DNA of 50,067 nt, filler included, from Obrimoposthia wandeli (taxonomy: Eukaryota): NCBI GenBank assembly GCA_977020255.1. It is 4 parts of 4 records of this genome, joined end to end, with 100 filler letters (N's around TTAATTAATTAA, not from the genome) between each part and the next. Parts side by side here need not be neighbours in the genome. Positions count along the whole stretch, not along the records: positions 27,443 to 39,733 come from CDROCS010004985.1; 3 more parts are not named here. One strand, 5' to 3'. The notes under the pieces are model-generated. The model did no database searches and was not told the origin of the DNA. It was given only the letters and a program-made list of their open reading frames with translations. Below, piece by piece: positions 38,500 through 38,997 of this stretch. Position 1 is the first letter of the stretch, and each line of letters starts with the position of its first letter. Made by a program: the position numbers and the translations under genes.

Positions 38500-38997
38500 G
38501 TTTATAGAAAAGATAACAAGATGTAATAATATATTTTCTAAAATCGAATCAACAATGTCTAGTTAATCAAAATTTCCAATCCCAATATCATAATTTTACC
38601 ACTGGAAAATATATTTACACATAGCAGTTTAAACTTCAAATAGCTGTGAGCAGGAAAAATTTCTGGTTCAAATATGCATTCTTCTTTCATTTTCTCTGCA
38701 ATTTTAAAAAAAGATTTATTTGTTTCCCAAGATTAACCAAAATTGTGATTGATTGTATTGCAGTGATTCAATTCCAAATGGTAAATTCATCCCAAGCAAA
38801 AGGTATTTTGCATCCATAACACGAAACTTCTTAAAAAGAATTTCAATATGAAAATAAAATAAAAATCTAACCTGTGGGAAAATAACAACTGTGAAATTGT
38901 CAAACCTTTTCATAATGTCTCGCTTCCATTCATTGAATGATAAGTACGAAACATCATATTCTATTCTACCTTTATAATTTATATTTATGAGTTTCAT
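38500..38997 (-). pseudogene. TBP-like gene, copy C, full length but frameshifted, probable 42-nt intron at 38830-38871
   Basis: MKLININYKG..FTVVIFP(T)G|KFRVM(G)CKIPF..IQSITILVNLGKQINLFKIAEKMKEECIFEPEIFPA..LKFKLLCVNIFSSGKIMILGLENFD (frameshifts corrected by eye). Confidence 0.8.

Follow-up and report, generated by a model that had tools for sequence, protein, structure and literature searches.

A shortened TATA-binding protein of Maverick elements, with decayed copies in Obrimoposthia wandeli, as a likely late-gene promoter factor

A stretch of 50,067 nucleotides from the genome of Obrimoposthia wandeli (assembly GCA_977020255.1), here called the window, contains three places which an earlier note, made from the sequence alone, had read as divergent copies of a TATA-binding protein (TBP)-like gene within mobile elements of the Polinton (Maverick) type. 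The locus raises the question of whether these are true TBP relatives and, if so, what an element of this kind would do with a TBP of its own. Related virophages use the transcription machinery of their giant virus; to our knowledge, animal Mavericks have no helper. The window has 29-30% GC, is rich in repeats, and includes three gaps and a longer run of N; its Maverick, LTR-type and stomatin-like sequences suggest an animal. The positions of the features are collected in Table 1.

When the six frames were translated, TBP-signature motifs appeared on the minus strand at each of the three places. A stop-free piece of copy 3 (38562-38708) matched the Pfam TBP family PF00352 with 24.8 bits against a cut-off of 22.9 (E 1.9e-5), and a piece of copy 1 (5768-6019) reached 17 bits (E 0.005); these two were the only PF00352 matches among the 94 stop-free ORFs of the window. 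When copy 1 (5642-5944, one stop read as X) was compared with the PDB, 35 of the 36 matches at E<=10 were TBPs, the best with E 9.6e-9. Judged by these comparisons, the homology of the window copies to TBP is not due to chance, as the earlier note had proposed.

The residues 2-144 of copy 3 were covered piecewise by tblastn with intact relatives as queries, and its start at 38997 reads N-x-N-Y-K-G, which is typical of the family. The frame breaks previously noticed were also found: several frame changes lie between about 38570 and 38880 in copy 3, and copy 1 has stops at 5765-5767 and near 6045. All the TBP copies of the window are broken by stops or frame changes and, from their sequence, would be inactive; the Glu pair of the C-lobe is present in copies 1 and 3. 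The claim of a further copy at 9530-9707 held in part. TBP sequence does occur there, but it comprises only the last third of the gene and lacks the FEPE motif, and the 5' half at about 10813-11000 had been missed. This half is about 63% alike, at the nucleotide level, to the 5' part of copy 3 and may derive from another subfamily. Since it has no intron and is less similar to copy 3 than the 3' part (89%), copy 2 is probably a mosaic. DNA contigs from four runs of one sample were placed on 37850-39700 in all 30 bins, with 49,792-60,578 contigs per run, which is not a copy number, and the window differs from nearly all of them at many sites. The placement and the site differences suggest that the copy 3 family is highly repeated in that organism and that copy 3 is one of its decayed members.

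Table 1. Positions of the TBP-like gene copies, element genes, probable introns and YATAAAC words in the window
Feature	Position	Strand	Evidence or remark
TBP-like gene, copy 3, element C	38518..38997	-	full length; frame changes and a stop; Pfam TBP above cut-off, PDB TBP matches
TBP-like gene, copy 1, element A	5642..6085	-	5' end decayed, internal stops; PDB TBPs, tblastn
TBP-like gene, 3' third, copy 2, element B	9579..9707	-	tblastn E 9e-15 with relatives; 89% nucleotide identity to copy 3
TBP-like gene, 5' half, copy 2, without intron	10813..11000 (about)	-	60% identity to L004 TBP, E 3e-10
Reverse-transcriptase-like fragment, about 1.1 kb, between both parts of copy 2	9710..10810	+	RT-type motifs in translation; Pfam RVT_1 E 0.012, below cut-off
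Probable intron, copy 1, 38 nt, GT..AG	5944..5981	-	frame kept across; position matches L051 intron; contains TAT microsatellite
Probable intron, copy 3, 42 nt, GT..AG	38830..38871	-	Gly codon of IFxxG motif; acceptor possibly 3 nt further on
Packaging ATPase, element A	3777..4394	-	tblastn 64% identity, E 2e-84
Conserved 105-aa ORF, element A, after ATPase	3123-3446	-	tblastn
Integrase piece, element A	2609-3077	-	tblastn
IAP-like gene (BIR + RING), element A, between copy 1 and ATPase	4690..5609	-	Pfam BIR E 1e-9, zf-C3HC4_3 E 5e-13
Integrase piece, 105-aa ORF and ATPase, element B	7695..9232	-	tblastn
Protein-primed DNA polymerase B, element B, opposite to TBP gene	11562..17150	+	tblastn with L004/L021 polymerases, E to 3e-77; Endonuclease_7
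Packaging ATPase, 5' half, element C	37875..38183	-	tblastn with L004 ATPase, E 9e-21; L004 ATPase matches Pox_A32
Retroviral-like integrase with chromodomain, element C	33670..34529	-	rve_3 and Chromo matches, tblastn, self-blast
Putative minor capsid, small ORF and major capsid, element C	31090..33673	-	tblastn with L004 proteins, E to 1e-99
AGTAG-starting terminus, element C, one end seen	30702..30790	+	sequence; similar inverted copy 27668-27740
Second polymerase B piece	41860..43012	+	tblastn; gap 39734-39833 between it and copy 3, linkage to element C uncertain
YATAAAC word	38500..38506	-	33 nt before small ORF after copy 3
YATAAAC words 31-42 nt before ATG	38219, 37596, 32335, 8624, 8445, 8088, 5640, 4726, 4431, 3785	-	sequence

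The gene had also been suspected of being split by an intron, and the sequence agrees with this. The GT..AG pieces of copies 1 and 3 both fall in the Gly codon following the N-lobe Phe, in which the metagenomic locus L051 has a 40-nt GT..AG intron, and the frame is kept across the intron in copy 1 and in L051; introns in copies 1 and 3 are probable on this basis. A split match to the test query was given by L051 only, of 81 loci ranked by score, a ranking which favours unsplit genes. No intron-matching joint was present among the joints listed (15 of 214), which come from DNA contigs of one sample and can reveal neither expression nor splicing. The shared short intron points to nuclear transcription by Pol II and to host splicing.

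The setting is that of Polintons, as had been read from the sequence. Three decayed modules (A, B and C) were mapped by tblastn with the proteins of intact relatives, and the Maverick core genes for polymerase B, retroviral-like integrase and packaging ATPase were all found in the window by tblastn or Pfam; in the relatives, Pfam matched DNA_pol_B_2, rve and Pox_A32, together with Peptidase_C5 in L001 and L005. The protease gave no tblastn match in the window, whose elements are truncated. The gene order of element A is TBP, IAP (BIR + RING), small ORF, ATPase, 105-aa ORF and integrase piece. That of element B is integrase piece, 105-aa ORF, ATPase, small ORF, TBP 3' third, RT-like piece, TBP 5' half and, on the opposite strand, polymerase B, which is broken by an insertion at about 13800-16000. 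Element C consists of an AGTAG end, putative major and minor capsid genes, a split integrase, half an ATPase, a small ORF, TBP, the gap and, with uncertain linkage, a polymerase piece, the 5' part of its integrase lying near 37350-37563, across a 2.8-kb insertion. The putative capsid ORFs (about 410 and 340 aa) are conserved, stand in the expected order and match no Pfam family, their labels being taken from size and gene order. The IAP-like gene has a YATAAAC word 31 nt before its ATG, and IAPs have already been reported in adintoviruses. No element is seen with both termini in the window; the ends observed are an AGTAG end at 30702 and, standing alone, a similar one at 27740.

Further features were observed in the same stretch. 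A fourth Maverick remnant occupies 27600-28260; its AGTAG end at 27740 resembles the terminus of element C, and it also contains an internal hairpin and, on the plus strand, part of an integrase. The segments 13947-14344 and 36944-37348 are 88% alike, lie in opposite orientation and represent one insertion family, whose members break up the polymerase gene of element B and the integrase gene of element C and are each accompanied by a large tandem array (46-nt x17 and 66-nt x25). At 30753-31215 the 3' end of the capsid gene shows a 232-nt tandem duplication beside the terminus of element C, which may be an assembly artefact. A gag-like region of an LTR retrotransposon with a zinc knuckle (43100-46300, plus strand) directly follows the second polymerase piece, and 21568-22287 (minus strand) holds an intronless C-terminal coding piece of a stomatin/Band-7 protein (Pfam Band_7), either a host exon or a processed copy.

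Intact members of the family were found outside the window. A word-index protein search with copy 1 gave no match, while the full HMMER scan of 1.84 billion representatives yielded 175 proteins at E<=0.001. A profile built from 33 relatives retrieved 223 clusters at E<=1e-10, which define a family of about 150 aa (median 153 aa in the 108 new homologues listed), here called mini-TBP, and intact relatives score 60-65 bits with PF00352. The loci analysed were the best 80 of 171 metagenomic matches; the number of metagenome data sets behind them is limited, and the loci are not independent. A core Maverick gene accompanied the TBP gene in 41 of the 80 loci, in all eight loci longer than 7 kb and in 4 of the 28 shorter than 2 kb, and accessory genes shared with the elements were present in 13 further loci. 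A prokaryotic origin was considered and rejected: the atlas label 'Archaea 100%' refers to one member, and both matches in prokaryotic assemblies adjoin Maverick genes. Maverick contigs (L082:693-6955 and L083) were observed within two bacterial metagenome-assembled genomes, probably through binning contamination, which may also explain the mislabelled TBP clusters. Among viral contigs no close TBP relative was found, only a weak match (L081) without a Maverick gene; neither the ATPase nor the capsid profiles matched there, and no TBP-less Maverick was found as a control.

The position of the gene, described earlier as fixed, turned out to be only a preferred one. Of the 29 loci with both genes, 26 have TBP upstream of the ATPase and on its strand, two have it on the opposite strand and one has it downstream; in eight further loci without an ATPase match it stands beside capsid, protease or polymerase genes, and in another group of relatives it follows the capsid/protease genes. 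Within the window, copies 2 and 3 are separated from the ATPase by about 0.3 kb; for copy 1 the distance is 1.25 kb and includes the IAP gene. Which genes adjoin TBP differs between loci. Accessory genes near it (L021:225-719, L015:4008-4316, L051:1710-2168) include a ubiquitin-conjugating enzyme, a dual-specificity phosphatase and a RING protein.

The dN/dS comparison suggested in the earlier note gave a median of 0.17 over 47 pairs (70 coding sequences; pS 0.02-0.65, dN<0.25), a value which the dN filter biases downwards, and one nearly identical pair exceeded 1; by this measure the mini-TBP family is under purifying selection. In a tree of 134 rows, an analysis likewise suggested there, every Maverick-anchored row belonged to a single clade of 89 (SH-aLRT 99), separate from the 45 rows of cellular type or probably from giant viruses, and a short-form subclade of 60 rows had SH-aLRT 98; the tree was a quick one, rooted at the midpoint, with long branches and without the window copies. 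The elements of L055-L080 carry a longer TBP of 165-180 aa which keeps the N-lobe helices H1 and H2, suggesting a stepwise shortening; these elements also have PLA2-like, KilA-N and DEDD-like genes and the same YATAAAC word.

The fold was examined on the intact relative P0004. Its AF2 model (pLDDT 96.5) is a two-lobe TBP saddle which superimposes on human TBP with Z 13.5 and rmsd 2.7 over 145 residues; TBPs overall gave Z 11-13.5 and the next fold Z 7.0, and among the Foldseek matches listed at E<=1e-6 all were TBP entries. The shortening of the first repeat, seen earlier in the window copies, holds for the family: in the model no helix of four or more residues occurs between the strands 45-51 and 65-78, the site of TBP helix H2, so that the short form is predicted to be without this N-lobe helix. 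The longer relative P0044 retains H2 at 77-91, with acidic instead of basic residues. In cellular TBP the basic patch bound by TFIIA, TAF1, Brf1/2 and Mot1 lies largely on the N-lobe H2, which holds three of its residues, and TFIIB is contacted through two Glu residues of the C-lobe, whose conservation in giant-virus TBPs is poor, at about 40% (Ravarani et al., PMC7221094). The Glu pair is kept in 47/48 and 48/48 short-form loci, and EPExF was found in 106 of the 108 further homologues listed. Of the two functions offered in the earlier note, that of a decoy against TFIID is weakened and appears unlikely, because the helix bearing the TAF1/TFIIA/Mot1/Brf patch is missing from the model.

As for the face which would meet the DNA, three of the four intercalating Phe had been called recognisable, and three are indeed invariant, the first being Pro in all 48 short-form loci; its loss may weaken bending. 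The MAFFT register of the first strand disagreed with the structural ranges, and the N-lobe equivalences of strand 1 were taken from the structural-comparison ranges, with a numbering that we in part presume. Arg105, Cys113 and Asn115 are invariant (48/48), at places where the eukaryotic rows have Ile/Val, Val/Thr and Leu, and by their spacing from Phe they match what we take, in part, to be positions 194, 203 and 205 of yeast TBP. The residues I194, V203 and L205 are the positions of the yeast altered-specificity mutant TBPm3 (PMC1636458). The DNA face of the short form is predicted to be polar, with invariant polar changes.

The sequences preceding the genes of the relatives were examined in de-replicated 70-nt windows before the start codons, and the occurrence of ATAAAC was compared with the mean of shuffled windows. 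The word was found before the ATPase in 25 of 26 windows (shuffled 1.9; reverse strand 0), before the 105-aa ORF in 18/18 (1.4), the DEDD-like gene in 16/23 (1.4), the PLA2-like gene in 10/12 (0.9), the minor capsid in 7/11, the major capsid in 6/10 (0.7) and the protease in 3/5, the DEDD-like and capsid labels being assigned from motifs, size and order. It was weak before the integrase (4/11) and a small pre-capsid ORF (1/7), and before the TBP gene it occurred in 3 of 55 windows, with 2.3 expected. The TBP gene tends to have other signals: canonical TATAWAWR in 25/55 windows (4.9 expected) and none in the other 30, TCAYW in the last 25 nt of 32/38 short-form windows (6.6 expected), and a TATA-to-TCA spacing of 30-32 nt in 19/31. 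Before window copies 1 and 3 no canonical TATA at the expected distance was seen by eye. On sequence grounds there are two promoter-like classes, YATAAAC on the element genes and, as a tendency, canonical TATA with an initiator-like word on the TBP gene. In the window itself, YATAAAC occurs 19 times on the minus and twice on the plus strand of the element spans (11,004 nt; shuffle mean 4.6, maximum 12 in 1000 shuffles), against four and two by strand in 18,500 nt outside the elements, and 11 of the 19 words are followed by an ATG at 31-42 nt, including those of IAP, two ATPases, two integrases and the major capsid.

Instead of a promoter, the word might be a signal of polyadenylation type belonging to the gene upstream, or might simply result from conserved Tyr-Lys-Gln codons, since it resembles AATAAA, the genes lie head to tail, and before the 105-aa ORF it often overlaps the last codons of the ATPase. 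This reading is nevertheless very improbable. The base before ATAAAC was T or C in 96 of 98 sites (C in 32) and A in one. Of 261 plus-strand YATAAAC sites 168 lie inside ORFs, which speaks against the promoter reading, but the word occurs in all three frames and 93 sites are in non-ORF places. Moreover, the distance to the downstream ATG is fixed whatever gene lies upstream: of 115 sites within 120 nt of a start, 62 begin at -46..-32 and none at -31..-19, as would suit a box placed about 30 nt from a transcription start that precedes the ATG.

A role as a late or structural promoter factor, the first function offered in the earlier note, is likely and gains indirect support from the shared word before the structural genes, the TBP gene's own, different promoter and a DNA face that is altered yet conserved; the link between mini-TBP and YATAAAC is one of co-occurrence. 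We consider it rather probable that the window copies are remnants of a shortened Maverick TBP whose product serves as the element's own late-gene promoter factor by way of the host polymerase. The TBP gene would be transcribed first, as an early gene, by host TFIID. Mini-TBP would then bind YATAAAC and recruit host TFIIB through the kept Glu-Pro-Glu stirrup, so that Pol II of the host reaches the genes for packaging, capsid and integrase, and without H2 it would escape TAF1, TFIIA, Brf and Mot1.

Host TBP may itself read TATAAAC, which is near a TATA box and one position off the canonical word. YATAAAC could accordingly be read by host TBP or another host factor, while the element TBP acts as a competitor, occupying TATA boxes of the host or sequestering TFIIB, with the effect of lowering host (defence) transcription; the kept TFIIB-contacting Glu pair and the other host-modulating genes of the elements (IAP, E2, RING, phosphatase) would suit such a competitor. 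This is unlikely, however, for a third of the sites (32/98) start with C, which canonical TBP disfavours (Pro191; PMC1636458), the invariant new residues on the face towards the DNA point to a target that is specific and altered, the word is avoided by the TBP gene itself, and the helix binding TFIID and TFIIA is missing. On another reading the protein would help replication, integration or packaging by bending DNA at AT-rich sites of the element, and would have no part in transcription. TBP folds do bend DNA and the gene adjoins the packaging ATPase in 26 of 29 loci, but the kept TFIIB stirrup and a promoter-like word found gene by gene would be left unexplained, and this alternative is extremely improbable.

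The late promoter factor could instead need an unrecognised partner encoded by the element, such as a divergent TFIIB or a herpesvirus-style adaptor, rather than host TFIIB alone. Viruses with a TBP mostly encode TFIIB too (PMC7221094), and several small ORFs near the TBP gene belong to no Pfam family. Against this, Pfam found no TFIIB family or RNA polymerase among 76 chosen ORFs of 15 loci (151 ORFs listed), a search that could miss divergent copies; the neighbours of the TBP gene vary between loci, and the Glu pair, which is of the host type, hardly varies, in contrast to viruses that encode TFIIB themselves. A partner of this kind seems unlikely. The proposal in its full form, in which a single TBP of 150 aa that has shed the host-control helix, kept the TFIIB handle and altered its DNA face runs a helper-independent early-to-late cascade from a private YATAAAC box in one animal-type Maverick lineage, has in our judgement about an even chance of being right.

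The likeness to known systems helps to place the protein. With cellular and archaeal TBPs (PF00352; PDB 7egb_P, 1ytb_A, 2z8u) it shares the two-lobe saddle (Z 13.2-13.5, about 145 residues), the EPExFP stirrup of the C-lobe and three Phe. It differs from cellular TBP (about 180 aa) in its length of about 150 aa, in being encoded by a mobile element and in forming a separate clade; in the model H2 is absent and H1 shortened, the first Phe is Pro, and invariant Asn, Ser, Arg and Cys occupy the DNA face. Giant-virus TBPs, as described in PMC7221094 and seen among BFVD matches, are likewise viral with a diverged N-lobe regulatory surface; giant viruses mostly encode TFIIB and conserve the C-lobe Glu to about 40%, whereas Pfam revealed neither TFIIB nor RNA polymerase in the Mavericks searched, and in mini-TBP the Glu pair scarcely varies.

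A functional parallel may be seen in the TBP mimics of beta- and gammaherpesviruses, likewise nuclear DNA viruses without their own RNA polymerase. ORF24 of KSHV is a proven late-gene TBP mimic and needs extra Asn residues of the DNA face for late promoters (PMC12529657). According to that source, ORF24 and mini-TBP have in common an Asn-enriched DNA face, with hydrophobic residues exchanged for Asn and an N-x-N pair, and each would go with a private TATA-like late word, TATTWAA as shown for the herpesvirus and, presumptively, YATAAAC in Mavericks. ORF24 is large and multidomain, acts in a six-member complex, binds Pol II, has four Phe and is, in the same text, without the TFIIB-binding acidic residues; mini-TBP is the TBP core only (median 153 aa) and keeps these residues, its function being proposed here where that of ORF24 has been shown.

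The earlier note did not count a TBP among the canonical Polinton genes. Our literature search, thin on subscription papers, likewise found no description of the mini-TBP family, of the loss of H2 or of the motif in animal Mavericks, and the accessible text of PMC12220804 contained nothing relevant. A figure legend dealing with related elements does, however, list 'TBP' as a label (Starrett et al. 2021, PMC8502044; bioRxiv 10.1101/697771). In the part of that work available it stands in the section on non-animal data sets, without analysis, and the label does not establish identity with the mini-TBP family; among the labels extracted from the maps of animal adintoviruses (Fig. S2) there is no TBP. 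Some members of the family have already been named TBP by IMG automatic annotation. Viral TBP mimics that serve late genes are already known; the novelty here is a minimal variant, and its occurrence in a group for which no such protein had been known.

With a dedicated TBP and a matching word, the way in which Mavericks activate the genes for capsid and packaging becomes testable by means of one small protein and a 7-bp motif. If the proposal is true, these elements would parallel the late-gene control of herpesviruses by an independent and much simpler route, and mini-TBP would be a natural altered-specificity TBP, which may be deaf to control by Mot1 and TAF1. Few viral transcription switches now known would then be smaller, and the case for regarding the elements as autonomous nuclear viruses would gain support.
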